Origin: Podarcis vaucheri
Taxonomy: Eukaryota
Length of the DNA: 64,000 nucleotides
NCBI GenBank assembly: GCA_965113315.1
Contig: OZ220368.1
Reading direction: 5' to 3' (one strand)
Both the position numbers and the translations under genes were made by a program. The stretch's first letter is position 1. Each line of letters starts with the position of its first letter. Below are positions 11,672-59,100 of this stretch, piece after piece. Below the pieces are notes generated by a model, which had not been told where the DNA came from, searched no databases, and saw only the letters and a list, made by a program, of their open reading frames with translations.

Positions 11672-12462
11672 ATTTTTAAAAAATATATATTTATTCATTT
11701 TCCATAACAAATTACACATCCAAAACATCTTTTTTTTACATCCATATTCCTCCTTGTTGACTTCCCTCCTCCCACCTGAAAAACCTTCCTAGTACTTACT
11801 TACTTTCTCCACATTTCTTAAATTTAGATTACATCACCATACTATTTAATTTATCCTTTATGATCTTACAGTATTCCTACATTTCTCTTCACAGAACTTC
11901 TTTAAAACTTACAAACGTTATCTGATTATCACTTAATGTTTGCATATATTCAATAAATTTCGTCCAATCTTCTGTAAATCCTTGATCACGTCGGTTCCGG
12001 ATCCTTCCTGTTAGCCTATCGAGTTCCGCATAGTCCATCATTTTCATTCTCCATTCTTCAATCGTAGGTAACTCTTCTTGTTTCCACTTCTGGGCCATCG
12101 AAGTTCTTGCTGCTGATACTGCATATAAAAATATCTTCCTGTCTTTTTTATCTACCTCATTACCTATTATTCCTAATAAAAACACTTCTGGTTTCTTTAC
12201 AAATGTATATTTCAACATTTTCTTCAATTCATTATAAATCATTTCCCAAAAGCTTTTAACTTTTTTACAGTCCCACCACATGTGGTAAAACGTTCCTTCC
12301 TTTTCTCTACATTTCCAACATTTATTGCTTATCTTATACATCTTTGCTAGCTTTACAGTTGTCATATACCATTGATACATCATTTTCATTATGTATTCTT
12401 TTATAGCAGTGCATGCCGTAAATCTTATTCCATCTTTCCACAATTTTAACCAGTCATCTATT
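11672..12462 (-). mobile_element. L1/Tx1-clade LINE, 5'-truncated 3' end
   Basis: ORF 11889-12443 has the L1-type C-terminal Cys motif CWKC...GTFYHMWWDC; A-rich tail on the minus strand; 15-bp TSD CAAAAAGAAGGAACT at 11657-11671 and 12463-12477. Confidence 0.9.
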
Positions 12463-20020: not shown

Positions 20021-22061
20021 ATAATGCTTTTCTCCACCCCACCCCACCCCCCCCCGCTAATATAAGCACTTCTATGCATACTTCACCTCAGTACATTCAT
20101 TTTTGTGCACATTATTTGTCTGGAGAATCTCACTGCAAAACTTGTAGAAGTGCAGGTTTCAAAGGATAGCTGTGTGCAGGATCAGCAGTGTGAGGAGGGC
20201 TCATGGCTCATGCAATTTGTGATGCAGCCCCCATCTGCACTATACATTTAAAGCAGCATCATACCTCTTTAAACAACATTCCTGAAAGAATTCTGGGAAG
20301 TATAGTTTGTTAAAGGGGCCAAGAGTTGCTAGGAGATTCCTGTTCTTACAGAGTTCCAACACTCAGAGTCCCTTGGGAAGAGGGATTGGTGGTTAAACTA
20401 CTCTGAAAACTGTAACTCTTTGAGGGGAATAGTGTTGGTGAAAACAAATGTCAGGGCCCTGACCAAACTTCAGTTCCCAGAATTCTTTGGGGGAAGGCGT
20501 GAATTCAGTTCCCAGAATTTGGAAGAAGTGGTACGATACTGCTTTCAATGCTTAGTGCAGATGGTACCTCAATTTTATTTTGAGGCCAGTGAGATTCACA
20601 CACCACAGTTCATTGCTCCATTTGGCCTGGTTGATCTCAAGCTGTACAGGGCTAGTTTATCTGCATTTTTAATCCATTAAAAAAAAAAGCTAGCATTTTG
20701 TTTGGGAATTATGTAATGCCAAATGGCTTGTTGCTCTTTTTGTTAGCGCATATTTTCCATTTAATAATTTAAAACACAATATCCAGCCCTTTGTCATAAT
20801 ACCAGGGCAGCATTTATGCAAACCTCCAGCTGGATGCATATTTATTGGCACCTTTGAATATACAGAGTTTACATTCCAGCTCTGTTTTATGCTTGCTTTC
20901 TCTTCCTCTCTGGTACATTGATGGTCGTGGGGCCATTATTGTTTCAAGTTATAAAATATGGATATCACTACCATGAATATTAGATCTCAATATATGGCCT
21001 TCTGAGGCAATTTGAACTGTATAAAACAATGTTTAAATACAGCTAACAGTGAAGAACTTTAAAAACGTGCACAGTAAGAACAAAAGGGCCGAGCAAATCA
21101 TGCAACAATGGACAAAATCAGGCAGTAGCAATAATGGAAAATGCTGAAACCATGGGGATGTCTCAATAGTATAGAGAACCGGGTATACTGTCATGGGACA
21201 GGAATCAGCTTCACCTGCAGAACAGCAGCCTGAAGAGAGAGGGAGTGATTCCACCTGCAGCTGATCAGCCTTCAAGGACACAGAGGAGAAGACACTGATG
21301 AGAACCAGCTGGCTTCAGCCTTCTCAAGCAGAGCCAAATGCTGGAAACACTGCTAGTAGTTCCTGGCTCTACCTTGCAGCTTCCTGCTCATCTTGACCCT
21401 GGACCCCATAATTATTGGATTCCTTGACCCTTGGACCATGTGGATTGCTGTTTGCCTTGGACTGGACCTAACTTTGGATGCTGATGCTGCCTCCAGGCAA
21501 GTACACCTCAGAGACTCTTCTGGTTGGCTGGTCTCCCACTCCACTGAGCTCATTGAATGAATGCACAGAGGCAATTATAGGTCCATCCCCCAATGAATGT
21601 GATGTTCACTGAAAAGAGTTGTTTGCATGTATGGATAGAAAGCTCCCACATGCAAGGAACAACCCCTGACTCCATTTAGCCCTGACGGAAGGTTTCCCAA
21701 CAGGGGAAGAGGTGTCCCCTGAAGCTGCCTGCACAAGAACCCATTTAGCCTGGGCTAGTAGGAAGGGTTGTGCCATGGGGACGTTACATGATTTCCAGCT
21801 TGGTCTGGATGTACACACAATAGGCTAGGCACTTCTCAGTTGCATGTACAACACATCACACGATAGGGCTGTTTACATATTACACTCAACAGATGTACAA
21901 TCGGCGTACCCGTGTACATAAGAAGTTGACCTGTACATTTGTACAGTTGTTTACACGTAGATATTTTTACTACGCAGCAACAGACCTGCTCCAAGCAGCT
22001 GTAAAATGTTAAAAGAAAGAAATATGCCACCTCAGACTTCCTTGTAGCTACATTTTTATTT

Positions 22062-22478
22062 GCGTGCTGAAGTCCCACAAAGCCCCTTCCCCAATAACTC
22101 AGACATCACACATAATTTTTGTTTGGTTTTTGGCATAATTTTGGCCACAACTTTATTTTATATACAGATTGAGAGTGGTTGCTTAGGCATTGGTTATGAC
22201 TACGTCCCCCCCCCGCCTTGGGGGACAGCACTGACTCCTTAGCCAGTCCCGGAGGAAACATGGTCAGAGTCAGATGGAGCTGCGTCACAGACTCTCACTG
22301 CTCCGCGCATGTTCCTTGAAGCTTACACGGCCCACACCCTGCCGTCAGGGTTTGGACGAGGGGGATGGTAAGCTTCAGAATTCCTTTAACGGAATACCCG
22401 TCTCAGCAGCATTGGAGGGGCAGGCACAGCCAATCCATACCCCTCCACCAACCAATTTTAACCAATGCCTAACCGCCA
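22062..22478 (-). repeat. Split direct repeat B2 (3' terminal)
   Basis: Matches 22863-23280 except a C9/C10 run and one A/G change (22334 vs 23136); AATAAA on the minus strand at 22152-22157. Confidence 0.96.
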
Positions 22479-22644
22479 ACCTTACAAGTTGTGACGATTT
22501 GCTAAGCAGTAGGCAAAACCCAAAAGGCACGCACTAATCAGCCAATTGGACAAATTCCTACTGGGCCCCCGCACCAAGGCGAACGACCCCATGACAGGCA
22601 AAGCAAGGTCAAAGCGCAAGCCCAAACAAGGGAGGGCGGGCGGG

Positions 22645-22862
22645 AGATCCGATGTCCACAGCAAAAGAGAAAGAGAAAGCTGTGGACCCTGCTTATATAA
22701 GGGGACTAAACCCACCCCTAAATTGGCAACATCAATTTTGCCCCAGTAACAGCTTTAACCAATCTGCTCCATCCCATTGCCCTCAATGGGCTGGTCACTA
22801 ACTGGGGGCTTTGTTTGGCCCCATCCGCAACACGTGCTCTCTCTTCTATGAGAACACGCTTT
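22645..22862 (-). repeat. Split direct repeat A2 (internal)
   Basis: Identical by eye to 29623-29840. Confidence 0.96.
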
Positions 22863-23280
22863 GCGTGCTGAAGTCCCACAAAGCCCCTTCCCCAATAACT
22901 CAGACATCACACATAATTTTTGTTTGGTTTTTGGCATAATTTTGGCCACAACTTTATTTTATATACAGATTGAGAGTGGTTGCTTAGGCATTGGTTATGA
23001 CTACGTCCCCCCCCCCGCCTTGGGGGACAGCACTGACTCCTTAGCCAGTCCCGGAGGAAACATGGTCAGAGTCAGATGGAGCTGCGTCACAGACTCTCAC
23101 TGCTCCGCGCATGTTCCTTGAAGCTTACACGGCCCGCACCCTGCCGTCAGGGTTTGGACGAGGGGGATGGTAAGCTTCAGAATTCCTTTAACGGAATACC
23201 CGTCTCAGCAGCATTGGAGGGGCAGGCACAGCCAATCCATACCCCTCCACCAACCAATTTTAACCAATGCCTAACCGCCA
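22863..23280 (-). repeat. Split direct repeat B1 (internal)
   Basis: Copy of B2; directly abuts A2 through the TTT core. Confidence 0.96.
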
Positions 23281-23309
23281 TTCGAGCCCTTACGCTCGCC
23301 GCCAACCAC

Positions 23310-23900
23310 TCACAAATTAAACCACACCCTCAGCCTGGACACTAGATCATCCAGCCACACATCATTCCCCAATGGCGAGAGATGAACCCCATCATCCCTG
23401 TAAAACTCAGTCGCCTTGAATGAAATCAGAGGGTGAGGAATTACAGCCCCACCCAGATTCACCACCAGCCTGCTTGCTGCGGAATTAATCCGCTTCCTTA
23501 CACGTTCCGTGGCGACTGGGCAAGGACTACCCCGCCAGATGCGGCGTTGCAACAGCTGTGACCAAATTAGCTTAGTTGACGGCACCCGTGCCGCCAATTC
23601 CCCAAGGTCCTGTAATATGGTAGCACGCAGCTCGTAGCAGGAAGAGGAAACCATATCGTTCTCCCCGAGCTGCACCACGATCGCTGAAGGAGGGCCACAT
23701 TGGAAGACACGCCTTCGCATGAGAGGTAACAATTCCCTCCACAGCATCCCCCTTCTGGAAATCCAGGACACCTGAACGCGGCGCGGGAATCCCAGGCCGT
23801 CACCCAGTCCGGACTGGCGAGCTCTGTCTGCAGCCCAGTGCACAATACTGTGCCCTACTATCCAAATACAGATAGCAGCCCGACCTAGGGTAAAACACAC
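23310..23900 (-). CDS. SGNH/GDSL-family hydrolase (esterase) of the Ngaro element
   Basis: Block I IWIVGHS (Ser), block II RGM (Gly), block III VQLGEND (Asn), block V DDGVHLS (Asp/His). The listed start is GTG and the first in-frame ATG lies after the catalytic Ser; probable exon start at 23884. Confidence 0.88.
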   Translation of the reverse strand: MCFTLGRAAICIWIVGHSIVHWAADRARQSGLGDGLGFPRRVQVSWISRRGMLWRELLPLMRRRVFQCGPPSAIVVQLGENDMVSSSCYELRATILQDLGELAARVPSTKLIWSQLLQRRIWRGSPCPVATERVRKRINSAASRLVVNLGGAVIPHPLISFKATEFYRDDGVHLSPLGNDVWLDDLVSRLRVWFNL

Positions 23901-23921
23901 ATATGTAAGTACAACAACACA

Positions 23922-24892
23922 TTATTTCCTCACGTAGGTTCTGAATGCATCCGAACGCCACCGACCCAGGTCCTTTATCCTCTTAACTGACAAACCCCAG
24001 TGAGCGGCAGTTGTAGCCGCCCCAATCCTAAACGAGTGAGGGGCAAACTCAGAAGCCGGGAGGCCGCAAGCCTCCACAGCTTTTCGCAACACTCCCGCAA
24101 ACTGGTGTCTCACCAGCGGGCGGCCATTTTCGTGTATGAACAGGGGCCCTTCGCCACCAGGGCGCAGGGCTAAATACTTCTTAAGGTCCTTCACCGGGCA
24201 ATGGCCACCTTCGCCCGTCGCAGGAAGTGTAATGACAGCGCCCCTACCTAGTTGATCCGTCTTTGAATTCCTGACGTGAACCTGCAGGTCCCTTGAAGAC
24301 ACACTCACATCCTGCATCAACAAACCCCTGGAACCTCCGTCCTGCTTGGGCTCGAGGACCACTTCGCCAACCCTCAGGGCCCCAAAGAAAGTTAACGAAA
24401 AGGCTGCTGAAAATAGCCGAACCTCAAATTTCGACCAACAGATGCTCCGCAGCTTAGACCGCATCTGCGCCAGCAATTCAAATGTAATGGGTCGCCTGGA
24501 GACGGGCCTGGAAGGAGTGAGTCGCCCCCATCCCTCCAGGGCCCTACGCACTACAAACTTCTTACACGGATCTTTATTAAAATATGCTTTACTAAAAAAG
24601 GAAATTGCTGCAGAATGCAGGCGTAGGGTCCTAGCTGCACGACGCATCTGGAATAGATGTGCCAGATACCGGAGCACCTGAGAGGTGGAGTGGGGGGTGG
24701 TAACCTCCCCAGCAGGCTGCCCACTAAATAACAAAAAGTCCGCCCAGGCCTTTTTATAGGACCTCAAGGTAGAAGGTGCCACAGATGCAGCTACTCCCTG
24801 TAAGACTAAGTTCTGCCAAGGTTCCAGAGATGATCCGGGAAAATTTCCGGACGGTCTCGAGCCACTGGCACCAGGGACCTGAAACGCTCCAT
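23922..24892 (-). CDS. Tyrosine recombinase (lambda-integrase family)
   Basis: GALRVGE (Arg), SKTDQ (Lys), HSFRIGAAT (HxxR), GRWRSDAFRTY (Trp, Tyr). The ORF-track start at 24782 is GTG; the frame is open upstream to the candidate acceptor at 24892. Confidence 0.95.
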
Positions 24893-26581
24893 CTGAAAAC
24901 GGGACAGAGCATCAGCAATTTCGTTAGAAATTCCTGGGACAAAACGGGCAGAAAAAACAATGTTAAAACGCAAGCAATGCAAGACGAAGGCCCGAAGAAG
25001 GGCAGATACCCGAGGGGATCGTGAAGACTGCTTGGCCAGTACATTCACCACCGCCTGGTTATCAGTCCAGAAACAAACACGGTGATCCCTAAATTGTTCG
25101 ACCCACAAGTGCACTGCCACTACAATGGGGAAAAACTCAAGAAAGGTTAAGTCCCTGGTTATAGCCTGCCCCCTCCATGCAGGAGGCCAGCGCTCAGCGC
25201 ACCACCTGCCATCCCAGTACAAGCCAAACCCTAAGGACCCCGCAGCATCCGAATGCACTTGGAAGTCGTTGTGGAGGTTCAAAGTGTCCTGCCACAAGGA
25301 CACCCCGTTGAATTCCTCCAAGAATTCCAACCAAATAGCAAGGTCAGCCCGTACCTGAGCAGGAAGGCGGACCCTGTGATGCGGGGCCTGCAGGCCCGAG
25401 GTGAGTCTGGCCAAGCGTGAACAGAAAGGTCGCCCGGGAGCGACCACCCTGCAAGCAAAGTTCAGGTGGCCCAGCAAAGACTGAAGTTGCCGCAGGGAGA
25501 CCTTCTTTAAAGGAATCATCTCTTCGATGACCATTCTTAAATTGGTTATTTTCTCAGGAGGCAGGCTAGATGTTTGAGCCACGGTATCTAACAAGATACC
25601 CAGGTAAGTCAGCTTGGTAGAAGGACCCTCGGTCTTCTCAGCCGCTAACGGGACGCCCAGCTCTTTCGTTAAGGAAGCGAAGGCTTGCAATAAGACCACA
25701 CAATCCCCCGTATTGCCTGCAGAGGCGACCAAAAAATCATCAAGATAATGCGTGACACCGCTTAAACCGGTTTTTTCACGTAAAGCCCATTCCAAAAACG
25801 AACTAAAACTCTCAAAGGCCGCACAGGCAACTGAGCAGCCCATGGGCATAGCCTTATCGAAATAAAAACTCCCTTCGAACTGAAATCCCAGCAACCAAAA
25901 ATCATCGGGATGAATAGGAAGCAGCCGAAATGCTGATTCAATGTCGCATTTTGCCAGTAAGGCGCCTGGCCCAAATTTTCGGATCATCTTGATTGCGTGA
26001 TCCAAAGAAGCATACCTCACTGAACAAAGCTCCGGGGGAATCACATCATTTACTGATGTGCCTCTGGGATGTGAAAGATTATGTATTAGGCGAAATTCCC
26101 CCGGGGCTTTTTTGGGAACTATGCCCAAAGGTGAAATATGCAAATTGGGAAATGGAGGGACCGCAAATGGACCGGCCATGCGACGTAAAGCTAGTTCCTT
26201 GCCAATTTTTCTTCGTGCCACCTCTGGCATATCCCTAATCGATTTCTGGTTGGCTGGGTTTCTGGCAACCGGGGTAGAGACCACCGGGATTCTAAAACCT
26301 AAAGAAAAACCTTCGCGCAAATAAGACGCCGCCTTGGCATCGGGGTACAACTCCAACAAAGAAAGCAGCGGCTGTAGCCTTACCGGGGTGTAAGCTAAAG
26401 AGGAAATCAAGCTACTTCCCTGCTCCCCCGGCAGGGGCTTGGGCTGCGGTTTTTGGGGGCTGTTGAGAGCCCCCCCCTTTTCGAAAGGGGCGGCGGCCAG
26501 TCTGGCACGCGGACCCGGAATGGTTCCCTGAACACTTATCACACGCATGTGCGTATTTACAAGACTGCCGTGTGCAAGCAC
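24806..26581 (-). CDS. Reverse transcriptase / RNase H
   Basis: SPLGIVPKK, FRLIHNLS, KCDIESAF, MPMG and HYLDDF RT motifs; SDAAG, LEFFPI, TDN and ADALSR RNase H motifs. Overlaps the gag end in the +1 frame; the listed start is GTG. Confidence 0.96.
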   Translation of the reverse strand: MLAHGSLVNTHMRVISVQGTIPGPRARLAAAPFEKGGALNSPQKPQPKPLPGEQGSSLISSLAYTPVRLQPLLSLLELYPDAKAASYLREGFSLGFRIPVVSTPVARNPANQKSIRDMPEVARRKIGKELALRRMAGPFAVPPFPNLHISPLGIVPKKAPGEFRLIHNLSHPRGTSVNDVIPPELCSVRYASLDHAIKMIRKFGPGALLAKCDIESAFRLLPIHPDDFWLLGFQFEGSFYFDKAMPMGCSVACAAFESFSSFLEWALREKTGLSGVTHYLDDFLVASAGNTGDCVVLLQAFASLTKELGVPLAAEKTEGPSTKLTYLGILLDTVAQTSSLPPEKITNLRMVIEEMIPLKKVSLRQLQSLLGHLNFACRVVAPGRPFCSRLARLTSGLQAPHHRVRLPAQVRADLAIWLEFLEEFNGVSLWQDTLNLHNDFQVHSDAAGSLGFGLYWDGRWCAERWPPAWRGQAITRDLTFLEFFPIVVAVHLWVEQFRDHRVCFWTDNQAVVNVLAKQSSRSPRVSALLRAFVLHCLRFNIVFSARFVPGISNEIADALSRFQMERFRSLVPVARDRPEIFPDHLWNLGRT

Positions 26582-27938
26582 CCTTATTGAAATCCCAGCA
26601 AAAAAACTTTTTTCCCAACCTGGTAGGGGCAGCCTTAAACTTCTGGGAGTCAGGGGCCTTCTTCTCTATTCGGGGGGCCACATAAGTGGTCCAGACATCC
26701 AAGTCCTTCCGATCCCAGCGGGCCGTAGGGATCTTAGCCGCCCTACGCCTAAAATTCTGGTCGTAAGCTAGCGCAGCAGTTTCTCCAGCCATTGTGAAGG
26801 TGGAACGGACAATGGACAGATACACCCAAAGATGCAATGATCTCCTGGGGTAGGCTGCGGCCACAACTCCAGCAAAAACCTGAAAACTATCTAGCCAACG
26901 CTCGAAGGTCCTGTCGGCCTTAGCTATGATTGACCGCTTCTTTGGAGCAGGCAGGCCCTTATCCAGAGGCTCCTGACCTTCCAACGGGGGAGCTAAGCTA
27001 AAGATATCAACGTAGCGGCCGTCCAAGATCCTTGAGCGTAATTTGGCGGACAGGTGAGCCCCCGGAATAATGTCCCTGGCCGAGTTGGTAGAGACTTTTA
27101 CATCCGGCACCAGGACCCCTTCAAGGCAGTCTAACACTGCCCCATATCTGGCCCTATGGGAGTTCGCCCTCCGCTCCCAAACCCATTTTGGAAGCCCCGA
27201 GGCTTCCCCAAAACCCCAGTATAACTTAAGGTGCGCTTCCTCATCGCTACTCGAACTCTGGGATGACTCACCTGATGAAGAGGACGAGGTGTCCCTACGC
27301 CTCTTCTTGGCACGCCTCCTTGAACTTCTCTTATGGCGGCGATGACCACCTGAGGACGTCTTCGGAGGGAGAGGGAGGCTATCCTCGACCGACGATTCTG
27401 ATGCGTCACCCTGCTGCGAAGTGGCTGGAAGTGACTGAAAAGACACAACCTGTGAATGACCAGGAATCGCTCTGCCTGCAACTGCGGGCTGCGCAGGCCA
27501 ACCCCGCACAACAAGGCCCCGTGCAGGTGCCCTTCTCCTAGCCCCCGCCCGGGCAGAGACCCGACCCCGTGGCACGGCCACCTGCGACACAGGCGGCACC
27601 GAGGACTGAGCCTGTGGCACGTCAGGCAAGTAGCCACTGGCTGGCACTGGCTCTTCCTCTTCTTCACTGGATGAAGACGGTGGAAGCGGAGCATCCACAG
27701 GGGGAGCCAGCATAGCAGAAGAAGTTGACGGGGTCGAGTGGCGATGCATCAGGCCATCCAGCTCCGCCTCCATCCTTGCCAGAGACACCGGGTCACCAGC
27801 CAAACTAGAGACCCTGGATTGGACTCGTTGTAAAGACTGGCCAGGTTGAGGAGAACGCAGAGCCTGAGATGGGCCTTTTATGGGCCGCTTAGCAGAGAGG
27901 GGAGGGGCCGACTTCCTTGTCGCCTTTTTTGGAGCCAT
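26412..27938 (-). CDS. Gag-like ORF1 (508 aa)
   Basis: ATG at 27938 in good Kozak context (GCAGGCATGG); low-complexity basic N-half with NLS-like RRHKRSSRRRAKKRRR; C-terminal C-x7-C-x4-C-x3-H followed by C-x2-C-x3-H-x4-C zinc fingers. Confidence 0.9.
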   Translation of the reverse strand: MAPKKATRKSAPPLSAKRPIKGPSQALRSPQPGQSLQRVQSRVSSLAGDPVSLARMEAELDGLMHRHSTPSTSSAMLAPPVDAPLPPSSSSEEEEEPVPASGYLPDVPQAQSSVPPVSQVAVPRGRVSARAGARRRAPARGLVVRGWPAQPAVAGRAIPGHSQVVSFQSLPATSQQGDASESSVEDSLPLPPKTSSGGHRRHKRSSRRRAKKRRRDTSSSSSGESSQSSSSDEEAHLKLYWGFGEASGLPKWVWERRANSHRARYGAVLDCLEGVLVPDVKVSTNSARDIIPGAHLSAKLRSRILDGRYVDIFSLAPPLEGQEPLDKGLPAPKKRSIIAKADRTFERWLDSFQVFAGVVAAAYPRRSLHLWVYLSIVRSTFTMAGETAALAYDQNFRRRAAKIPTARWDRKDLDVWTTYVAPRIEKKAPDSQKFKAAPTRLGKKFFCWDFNKGACTRQSCKYAHACDKCSGNHSGSACQTGRRPFRKGGGSQQPPKTAAQAPAGGAGK

Positions 27939-28619
27939 GCCTGCTACTGGCTTTGGACAGAAAATCAAATAAGAGGAAATAAAACAAATGAAATTAAGTC
28001 AAAATTAAATAGAATTAAATAATAATACAATAAAATAATACAATACAAATTAACGAATTTTAATAAAATAATAAACAACCAGCAGGCAGGAGAATAACCC
28101 CAACGCCCCAAGCGTATTCAGAGGCTTAGTCAGTGGTATAAGCAACAGGGATTAACAGGCAAACCTGAACAGGTAAAATTCAACAACCCCTGCAATACCA
28201 GATTGGCCACTAGAGGCCACTGCGGTGCGCAGCTAACACGAGCAGGCCCTGCAGTTACCAGATCCGGCCAGCAGGGGCCTCTATTAGTGAAACGGGGCAA
28301 GATGGCGCTCCCGCCAAAATTGCCCCCCGCAATTGGGGGATCACAAGTGAGGCTGGGCCAGGAACCAGGGATCGATTCAGCAGGAGCCCCCCAAGCGCCG
28401 ATGAGGAGGCCCAGCGGCGCAGGTAAGGGCTCCGCAGCTCTCACGGCCCCCCGCCGGCACCCCTAGAGGGCCCGCAGGGACGGGAGGGGCGAGAGAGGAG
28501 GGGGAAAGGTGGAAAAACTGCTCCCCCGTTCGGGAGCCGAGAGGCCTCCACGGGCCTCAAAACGAGAAAGGCGGCCCGGGCCGCCCAAGCCTCGGCCGCA
28601 GCAGACCCCCGCGCCACCG

Positions 28620-29150
28620 GAGGCGGCCCGCGGCGCGGCAGGCCTGGCCGGATGGGCACCCCCGGCGGGCCGCGCGCAGCAGCCGCTGCAGCAGCGAGCC
28701 CCGGGAGCCCCTAGGCCCCGATGCCGGGAAGGCGGCCTAGGCCAACGGCGCGGCGCGGCAGGCCCGGCCGGATCCGGCCCAGGCGCGGGCGATCGAGACG
28801 CCCCGGCGGGCCGCGCGCAGCAGCCGCTGCAGCAGCAAGCTCCGGGAGCCCCTAGGCCCCGACGCCCGGAAGGCGGGCCAGGCCGCGCAGGCCCCCTAAC
28901 CGCGCCGAAGCGGGCCGGGGCCGATCGCCGCGCCGCCGGACGCGACCAACGGCGCAGCGCGGCAGGCCCGGCGGGATCTGGCCCAGGCGCGGGCGATCGA
29001 GGCGCCCCGGCGGGCCGCGCGCAGCAGCCGCTGCAGCAGCGAGCTCCGGGAGCCCCTAGGCCCCGACGCTGGGAAGGCGGCCCAGGCCGCGCAGGCCCCC
29101 CAACCGCACCGAAGCGGGCTGGGGCCGATCACCGCGCCGCCGGACGCGTG
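28620..29150. repeat. GC/CpG-rich imperfect tandem repeat in the element's 5' leader
   Basis: Block ccccggcgggccgcgcgcagcagccgctgcagcagc at 28660, 28801 and 29005 (periods 141 and 204 bp). Confidence 0.9.
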
Positions 29151-29622
29151 AAGGCGCCTCCCCGCGGGCCACAGTCAACCGCAGCGGCGGCAGCGAGACC
29201 CAGGGGAACTCAAACGTGAGTAAGGGGGAAGGGGGGAGGGTGGGTAACAGCCGAACCGCAGCCGCCCCGCAGCAGCGGTAGGCCCCGGGAGCGGTAGGCC
29301 GTGGGTCAGTAGGCAGGCTCTAATGGCCAGGGATAGCCGGGCCAGATACAGCAGGGACCCAGCCCCCGCCGGCCAGAGCCTTCCCGGCCCGGACAACGGC
29401 TCGGCCGAGACCGGGCCGTAGCCAGTCGGGACCGGGAGATCACCCCCCCCCCAGGGAGAAGACAGGATAAATTAACAGGGAAGAAAATTAAATTAATAAT
29501 AATAATTCAGAAAAAATTAACTTAACCAATCGCTTGGGGATAAATTGAATTAGGAAGGAAAGAAAGGTAAAGCTAAGATCAATACGACCAAGATTTCTCT
29601 CGCTGTTTCACTCCGGTGTAAA

Positions 29623-29840
29623 AGATCCGATGTCCACAGCAAAAGAGAAAGAGAAAGCTGTGGACCCTGCTTATATAAGGGGACTAAACCCACCCCTAAA
29701 TTGGCAACATCAATTTTGCCCCAGTAACAGCTTTAACCAATCTGCTCCATCCCATTGCCCTCAATGGGCTGGTCACTAACTGGGGGCTTTGTTTGGCCCC
29801 ATCCGCAACACGTGCTCTCTCTTCTATGAGAACACGCTTT
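29623..29840 (-). repeat. Split direct repeat A1 (5' terminal)
   Basis: Identical by eye to 22645-22862. Confidence 0.96.
29645..29745 (-). promoter_or_regulatory. Putative Pol II promoter in repeat A
   Basis: Palindromic CTTATATAAG (29670-29679), upstream CCAAT boxes (~29700-29704 and ~29737-29741) and a pyrimidine-rich stretch 25-30 nt downstream on the minus strand. Confidence 0.6.
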
Positions 29841-51642: not shown

Positions 51643-51696
51643 CTAAAATGAACTCAAGTATTCCAGTGCAACCTCGTATACAAATTTATATTGTTC
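51643..51696 (-). CDS. PTPRT: PTPRT last coding exon
   Basis: ttttag|EQYKFVYEVALEYLSSF*; matches the PTPRT C-terminus as I recall it. Confidence 0.93.
   Translation of the reverse strand, partial: EQYKFVYEVALEYLSSF

Positions 51697-53563: not shown

Positions 53564-53785
<222 letters not shown>

Positions 53786-58893: not shown

Positions 58894-59100
<207 letters not shown>

Follow-up and report, generated by a model that had tools for sequence, protein, structure and literature searches.

A very young full-length Ngaro retrotransposon in Podarcis vaucheri, with predicted Gag-leader splicing and a candidate folded single-strand route of integration

The Ngaro type of retrotransposon is already known, and the present study describes a full-length member at positions 22059..29840 (minus strand) of a 64,000-nt stretch of Podarcis vaucheri DNA (GCA_965113315.1, contig OZ220368.1), hereafter called the window. 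According to the available sections of PMC9210276, the Xenopus elements DIRS-53_XT and DIRS-54_XT share with it the A1...B1 A2 B2 repeats and the gag-like, reverse transcriptase/RNase H (RT/RNase H), tyrosine recombinase (YR) and SGNH hydrolase open reading frames (ORFs); they also have young, potentially active copies and no methyltransferase. The lizard element differs from this pair in its B repeat (421 nt vs 152 nt in Xenopus) and in a unique spacer between A2 and B2. Ngaro is also far more abundant and diverse in the lizard, where 150 frames were scored out of 2322 SGNH candidates, than in Xenopus, for which PMC9210276 gives 0.04-0.09% of the genome. Splicing, a target rule and mosaicism are not described for the Xenopus elements in those sections.

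The Ngaro of the protist Cafeteria burkhardae (PMC8547959, available sections) likewise has the structure A1-[ORFs]-B1A2B2, and its solo AB repeats formed by recombination can be compared with four solo A-C-B loci in the lizard; those sections hold no passage on splicing or frameshifting. Dictyostelium DIRS-1, as described in parts of PMC7192593, also encodes Gag, RT/RNase H and YR, rebuilds its ends from an internal junction copy, has a short shared core without target duplication and makes single-stranded cDNA. DIRS-1 has inverted repeats, an internal complementary region and a 3-bp core, with a methyltransferase in related elements, whereas the lizard element has direct repeats, a hydrolase and a 2-bp core. 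The same parts of PMC7192593 state that YR specificity has not been studied by experiment. Two questions are addressed here: how Ngaro genes without a start codon are expressed, and how the Ngaro recombinase integrates the element.

Our overall reading, to which we give a probability of roughly 0.7, is that the window holds a full-length, very young lacertid Ngaro, apparently absent from this site elsewhere, which would express its downstream genes by splicing of a Gag leader and a +1 shift into RT and would integrate as a single strand. We observed the anatomy, the open frames, the ages of the copies, the junction rules and the conservation of splice signals and of a fold. In the proposed cycle, a promoter in A1 would drive an RNA ending in B2, reverse transcription would restore both ends from the internal B1/A2 copy, and the recombinase would join the B/A junction to a genomic R-Y-AA/N site; the likeliest course is a single exchange of strands on a folded single-stranded substrate, with replication as the resolving step. 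A wider picture of a segregating vertebrate retrotransposon with three alternatively spliced proteins on one Gag leader, integron-style insertion of a folded single strand at R-Y-AA/N sites and one enzyme module sweeping under many interchangeable 5' modules, each made up of leader and Gag N-terminus, is doubtful.

Anatomy and classification of the element

The element runs in the order A1, leader, gag, RT/RNase H, YR, SGNH, B1, A2, a 166-nt spacer and B2. Base 22059 is target DNA and lies outside the element proper. Its features are as follows.

22059..29840, minus: entire Ngaro element; AA core shared with the target, at 29840-29839 on the 5' side and 22061-22060 on the 3' side
29623..29840, minus: A1 split direct repeat, 218 nt
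27939..29622, minus: 5' leader, 1.68 kb, GC- and CpG-rich, exchanged between subfamilies
26412..27938, minus: gag-like ORF, 508 amino acids (aa) from ATG, with a terminal Lys-stop
27266..27274, minus: predicted phase-1 splice donor after gag codon 222; first intron base 27271
24806..26410, minus: RT/RNase H coding region in the +1 frame relative to gag, with the frame open from 26665; YLDD and D-E-D-D residues
24892..24925, minus: predicted YR splice acceptor; first exon base 24892, branch-point-like CTAAC, 24-nt invariant run
23922..24892, minus: tyrosine recombinase exon; SAM-like N-domain and R-K-H-R-W-Y catalytic set
23884..23921, minus: non-coding gap, predicted SGNH acceptor; branch point, pyrimidine tract and AG; first exon base 23884
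23310..23884, minus: SGNH/GDSL hydrolase exon; S, G and N plus DxxH residues
22860..23280, minus: B1 repeat, 421 nt; AATAAA at 22958-22953
22815..22878, minus: B1/A2 junction, a copy of the presumed circle junction; conserved imperfect hairpin around the crossover AA
22645..22862, minus: A2 repeat, identical to A1
22479..22644, minus: unique spacer C, 166 nt (162-182 nt in divergent families)
22059..22478, minus: B2 repeat; AATAAA at 22157-22152

The element is a member of the Ngaro superfamily (order DIRS). It has split direct repeats (A1...B1 A2 B2), the order and orientation of the gag-like, RT/RNase H and YR genes, a YR and no DDE integrase, no methyltransferase match, an SGNH ORF past YR, and a short shared core without target duplication. 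PAT-like elements combine split direct repeats with a methyltransferase domain in the definition given in the available part of PMC7192593; this assignment was rejected because that domain was not found and SGNH is present. The DIRS1-like assignment was rejected because no long inverted repeat, a feature of that type, was found in the element. No methyltransferase was matched in the element by Pfam, and the RT frame stops after RNase H; envelope, protease and DDE integrase also gave no match in the element.

The repeats and base composition agreed with the sequence-only reading, which had given A1 and A2 as identical over 218 bp, B1 and B2 as differing at 2 of ~420 positions, and CpGs as abundant relative to depleted flanks. 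A1 and A2 showed 0 differences over 218-219 nt, B1 and B2 one substitution and one homopolymer indel across 421 columns, and the CpG observed/expected ratio was 0.71 inside the element versus 0.22 and 0.21 in the flanks. A TATA-like box inside A1 (29677-29670), which we infer to act as the promoter, is directly followed by a perfect 9-10 bp inverted repeat with a pyrimidine loop (29666-29630, also in A2), situated near the presumed transcription start. The leader contains tandem repeats of 141/204-nt units at 28582-29130. In most families a GGTYGTAT motif lies 14-40 nt past A1 (here 29590-29580), though the leaders are otherwise unalignable; an odd donor, a promoter element and a priming site are candidates for its role.

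The four open frames measure 528, 619, 329 and 203 codons from stop to stop. Pfam matches above the cut-off were RVT_1 (E 2e-13) and Phage_integrase (E 1e-6), while zf-CCCH on gag (weak, E 1e-4), where CCCH/CCHC zinc fingers lie near 26600-26490, and GDSL lipase on ORF4 (E 7e-4) fell below it. Among solved structures none matched SGNH, and RT matched only that of a foamy virus, weakly.

Copies, age and the empty site

The 1.61-Gb genome was searched for exact end patterns, with reversed patterns as controls, which yielded 48 A-starts and 45 B-ends against 0 for the controls. A lower bound of 28 loci was assembled from these patterns, namely 24 with ORFs and the 4 solo A-C-B remnants; among the 24, three lack A2-B2, one is 5'-truncated, one carries an extra A-C-B unit and one (L083/L084, G000:C39:21784100-21798300) has its A1 interrupted at the TATA-like box by 5 kb of inserted DNA, apparently with a short target duplication. 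Five other full-length copies are 99.3-99.8% identical to the window element, and at least 10 of the 24 hold all four frames at the window lengths. The earlier suggestion to look for near-identical genomic copies was thereby answered, and its view of a complete, very young Ngaro is borne out by these copies together with the repeat identity. The window copy shows 10-15 substitutions in 6.59 kb relative to its six closest sisters, which differ among themselves by 2-9.

Variants private to one copy were present in both of its repeats, in A1 and A2 of L002 (position 116) and in B1 and B2 of L003 (position 364), a pattern that would follow if every cycle restored the two ends from the internal B1/A2 junction. 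The copies could in principle be alike through gene conversion or assembly collapse rather than recent transposition; conversion between genomic copies could produce a mosaic pattern, and the homopolymer indels could be sequencing errors. This explanation is very improbable, since every copy sits between flanks of its own, with exact ends and private variants, the CpGs are undecayed, and empty sites in other runs largely refute it.

The left junction was examined in 4 of 24 listed sequencing runs (X1, X3, X4 and X7). Contigs of X4 (1767 nt) and X7 (647 nt) follow the flank to 22062 and then continue into other DNA; X4 has the species label of the best-matching run, X1, with a different sample, and X7 has another species label. 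The point 22062 is where the predicted empty site parts from the element. The possible insertion polymorphism raised by the sequence-only reading therefore found support in two of the four runs; its empty site stood as to the departure at 22062, but the shared core is 2 bp (AA), with no longer duplication. Two points weigh against an empty site: the sequence beyond 22062 in X4 and X7 is not shown, and no junction record was listed for X1 and X3. X1 is an exact flank match over 753 nt, with a second haplotype nearby. These data indicate that the insertion is apparently absent at the 22059/29840 site in two other animals.

The flanks of X4 and X7 differ from the window at 14/543 and 15/542 letters (~2.6-2.8%), a divergence of the empty haplotypes more than 10x that among copies (0.15-0.23%). 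The insertion is therefore probably much younger than the split of the haplotypes, and neither a fixed insertion nor highly diverged copies, which the earlier reading had named as grounds against it, was found. An insertion of 7.8 kb that is polymorphic and brings a promoter, poly(A) signals and splice acceptors to a site downstream of a PTPRT-like gene can also serve as a population marker.

For comparison beyond the family, 20 loci were hand-picked to cover the identity classes found among the 150 scored SGNH matches; 18 of the 20 carry all four genes at 66-82% nucleotide identity and, with the window, make a set of 19 elements (21 for the SGNH acceptor). All 18 of the 18 catalytic residues checked are present in the window copy, and they are kept in 22-23 of 23 family copies and 17-18 of 18 divergent elements, so that the four intact ORFs with catalytic residues claimed earlier were found again. 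The claim of potential activity held in part: the frames are open and the catalytic set is complete, but the window copy has two private missense changes, at gag codon 380 and YR codon 230, where its residues occur in 0/23 family copies and 0/18 divergent elements. These changes at otherwise invariant codons speak against a working copy, which they may disable, and the open frames are therefore no proof of function. That the window copy itself is active is possible, at somewhat less than an even chance; no transcript, cDNA or circle of it was seen among RNA runs of low cover from relatives only.

It might instead have been dead on arrival, an insertion copied with damaging changes from an active family whose other copies move. 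We hold this, too, to be a tentative reading, on somewhat less than even terms. The two missense changes, which hit codons that do not vary among 41 other elements, and the position of the window copy as the most divergent among the seven youngest copies point to it, whereas the open frames and the intact catalytic residues and signals point away. Moreover, the DIRS-1 RT acts in trans according to the available part of PMC7192593, and the RNA of the window copy could still be moved.

Routes to the downstream proteins

In neither the YR nor the SGNH frame does an ATG precede the first conserved motif or the domain. Splice sites were sought by a crude matrix scan: the YR acceptor at 24892 was found by scan and by eye, the SGNH acceptor at 23884 by eye, with a low score in this copy. 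The best sense-strand donor in the scan lies after gag codon 222 (27271, phase 1), and its combination with the phase-1 acceptors at 24892 and 23884 predicts products of 545 aa (YR) and 413 aa (SGNH). We consider it probable, from comparative conservation and gene models, that YR and SGNH would be made by splicing the 222-residue Gag leader to these two alternative acceptors. In retroviruses, the env-type RNA reaches a 3' ORF by splicing from a 5' donor; the lizard element differs in that the leader is coding (half of Gag) and would be joined to either of two acceptors.

The donor reads G/GTR in 19/19 elements; of the 109 four-fold sites in gag, only 6 are invariant, and one of these falls at the donor. 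No stretch of the 4.6-kb alignment stays invariant for longer than the 24 nt that end at the YR acceptor. The AG of the SGNH acceptor is kept in 21/21 elements with a branch point and a pyrimidine tract, in a non-coding gap whose length and frame vary between families. Two RefSeq lacertid models of 413 aa, P0019 and P0020, join the gag leader straight to SGNH, at lengths that had been predicted beforehand; they match the window at 188 and 171 of 222 leader residues and at 173/190 SGNH residues. A gag leader plus SGNH only makes up 17 of the 25 longer SGNH database matches, and RefSeq model P0067 joins leader residues 1-222 to YR at 224.

Alternatively, all downstream ORFs could be reached by frameshift, read-through or re-initiation on one unspliced RNA, with the splice-like motifs as by-products of protein constraint. 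In the window copy SGNH does follow the YR stop in frame, the YR acceptor overlaps a conserved RNase H motif, and the RNA contigs are unspliced. We regard this alternative as improbable, because in many families the frames of YR and SGNH do not agree in phase, the SGNH acceptor lies in non-coding DNA yet is kept throughout, synonymous sites are frozen at the donor and the YR acceptor, and the predicted joints are those found in the RefSeq models. Stop read-through into SGNH was also rejected.

Several observations count against Gag-leader splicing. No spliced joint at the predicted sites was found in X15, X19, X23 and X21, which are 4 of 10 listed RNA or RNA-guessed runs, of low cover and from relatives only, and X15 contigs run unspliced across both the YR and the SGNH acceptors. 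The RefSeq models, XP_077785642.1 and XP_077782887.1 among them, are automated, with no read support visible. Among 25 long YR matches, three join RT to YR and one has a BLAST match to the window gag leader, and two of 25 SGNH matches join YR to SGNH. By the crude matrix, the donor is weak in many families, and antisense control sites scored equally high.

As judged by eye, the leader of 19/19 elements closes with a T-rich tract followed by YAG-G-N-ATG or YAG-G-ATG, which hints at a 5' intron ahead of the gag ATG; no clear donor for it was found. A pattern built from a loose RNA end had no match in the genome. Long lacertid gene models (P0037, P0039-P0042; 1030-1570 aa, some zinc finger 638-like or SRRM2-like) end in the SGNH exon, as if host transcripts spliced onto its acceptor. 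No titles on Ngaro splicing, lacertid Ngaro or integron-like integration were found in the literature listings. Goodwin and Poulter 2004 and Poulter and Butler 2015 may mention introns or spliced transcripts for some YR retrotransposons, and the splice model may partly be in print already.

Concerning RT, codon-position constraint changes from the gag frame (0.87/0.92/0.68) to the RT frame (0.61/0.80/0.92) exactly at the gag stop, and Lys-stop ends gag in 19/19 elements. This switch at a conserved Lys-stop makes a +1 ribosomal shift at the stop the best guess, and RT might thus be reached at odds just short of even. The gag Lys-stop may be akin to the AAA-TAR shifts of ciliates. Against such a shift, no conserved structure was found downstream of the gag stop. 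We rejected an RT splice acceptor at 26394 (AG in 13/19 only), a -1 slippery site in gag (the RT frame is +1) and a fused gag-RT as the normal state, as fusion occurs in 8/24 family copies and 1/18 divergent elements. Such fusions arise by changes in the length of a G-run, split frames being the rule, and several families interrupt the run. It belongs to a conserved 7-bp hairpin, GGGGGCT/AGCCCCC (26480-26450, ~45 nt ahead of the gag stop), and, as a hotspot for indels, has led to fusion or shifting of gag and RT in many copies.

Integration, mosaic families and genomic surroundings

The 5' junctions carry AAA in 44/46 cases, and the 3' junctions AA in 47/47 with a free third base (A19 C14 T11 G3), for which reason a 3-bp AAA core was rejected. 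Across these 46 and 47 junctions, element and target share AA alone, with no target-site duplication. R-Y precedes AA at 21/27 family loci (p 1e-8) and 15/19 divergent loci, giving the target R-Y-AA/N, or N/TT-R-Y on the opposite strand, with conservation on one side of the cut only. The start of A is present in 46/46 5' junctions and absent from 47/47 3' junctions, and therefore no coupling sequence was moved. The B/A junction folds into a long imperfect stem in 17/17 distinct sequences (z-scores of -2.5 to -6.1 for the sense and -1.7 to -4.6 for the antisense strand). In this stem the B end CGCAA pairs with TTGCG inside A, beyond one mismatch, and the stem spans the junction in register; the longer fold superseded a short 5-bp hairpin around AAA.

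The one-sided target and the lack of a moved coupling sequence fit one strand exchange, and integration by such an exchange on a folded single strand, then resolved by replication, is a tentative proposal at a little below even odds. Integron recombination also uses a single strand exchange followed by a replication step. According to the available part of PMC8876359, IntI acts on a folded single-strand attC site and cuts between bases 1 and 2 of GTTRRRY, which matches the lizard N/TT-R-Y. The parallel is one of working only, as the lizard element is a eukaryotic retroelement with no cassette array and no attI.

The classical course, in which a double-stranded circle undergoes two strand exchanges over a 2-3 bp core and the hairpin serves reverse transcription or RNA handling, stands at nearly even odds. 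It is the published model for DIRS elements in the available parts of PMC7192593 and PMC3266345, and a 2-bp core would leave identical junction sequences. It also gains from the near invariance of the hairpin, which tells against a folded substrate: a compensatory change was seen at 1/18 consensus pairs, in one sequence, and the fold thus has almost no covariation. Two exchanges are harder to reconcile with the one-sided target conservation, with the junctions (0/46 5' junctions without the A-start, 0/47 3' junctions with it), with the stem crossing B/A in register and with the DIRS-1 cDNA, mostly single-stranded in the accessible text of PMC7192593.

The family has many types of 5' leader, less than 85% alike. 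In six groups the 3' module, which starts at roughly gag nucleotide 550-750, is almost the same, yet their first 500 nt of gag carry 31-92 substitutions relative to the window group; one young 3' module thus sits on at least 6 different 5' modules. Conversely, one 5' module can be paired with an old 3' module in one copy and with a young one in another (L009/L020, L016/L018). Since the modules break close to the predicted splice donor, what is exchanged corresponds roughly to the leader together with the common first coding exon. The mosaics probably arose through template switching in the course of reverse transcription, with gene conversion as a rival cause.

Further young Ngaro families, represented by the 150 scored SGNH frames at 61-100% identity, are present in the genome; within-locus repeat identity at the 18 of 20 loci taken was 96.8-100% for A and 99.1-100% for B. 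So many young, intact families in a lizard genome allow exact and cheap tests of the splice joints, the frameshift site, the folded substrate and the target rule. Two loci, L120 and L121 (G000:C19:81853100-81862500; C27:34370700-34380100), have young split repeats and an open SGNH exon (89%) around a CpG-poor interior with broken, distant RT/YR/SGNH remnants, and have ~33 matches at 87-89%; this family looks non-autonomous, with SGNH kept or freshly gained. Summed contig depth over B2 and the spacer (22038-22640) was thousands-fold above the flank in 4/4 runs, which is not a copy number and suggests that B/C-like sequences may be very abundant.

The closest named homologues of the element are from lacertid lizards (Podarcis muralis, 91%), in keeping with the reptile host proposed from the sequence alone. 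The neighbouring gene is as follows.

about 51643..51696, minus: last coding exon of a PTPRT-like phosphatase; further exons near 53591-53728 and 58927-59058

This exon is 21.8 kb from the element; the ~12 kb given in the sequence-only reading would hold or fail with the position of the 3' UTR end. The gene and the element are both on the minus strand, as had been claimed, and the PTPRT-like assignment comes from one D1 exon, whose best PDB match was PTPRT (85.5 bits vs 80.5 for PTPRM). Window ORFs at 1594-2148 and 11889-12461 are, judging by eye, presumably CR1 and L1 line fragments. The left flank at 21300-21552 is an old interspersed repeat of ~250 nt, 76-80% identical to many loci.

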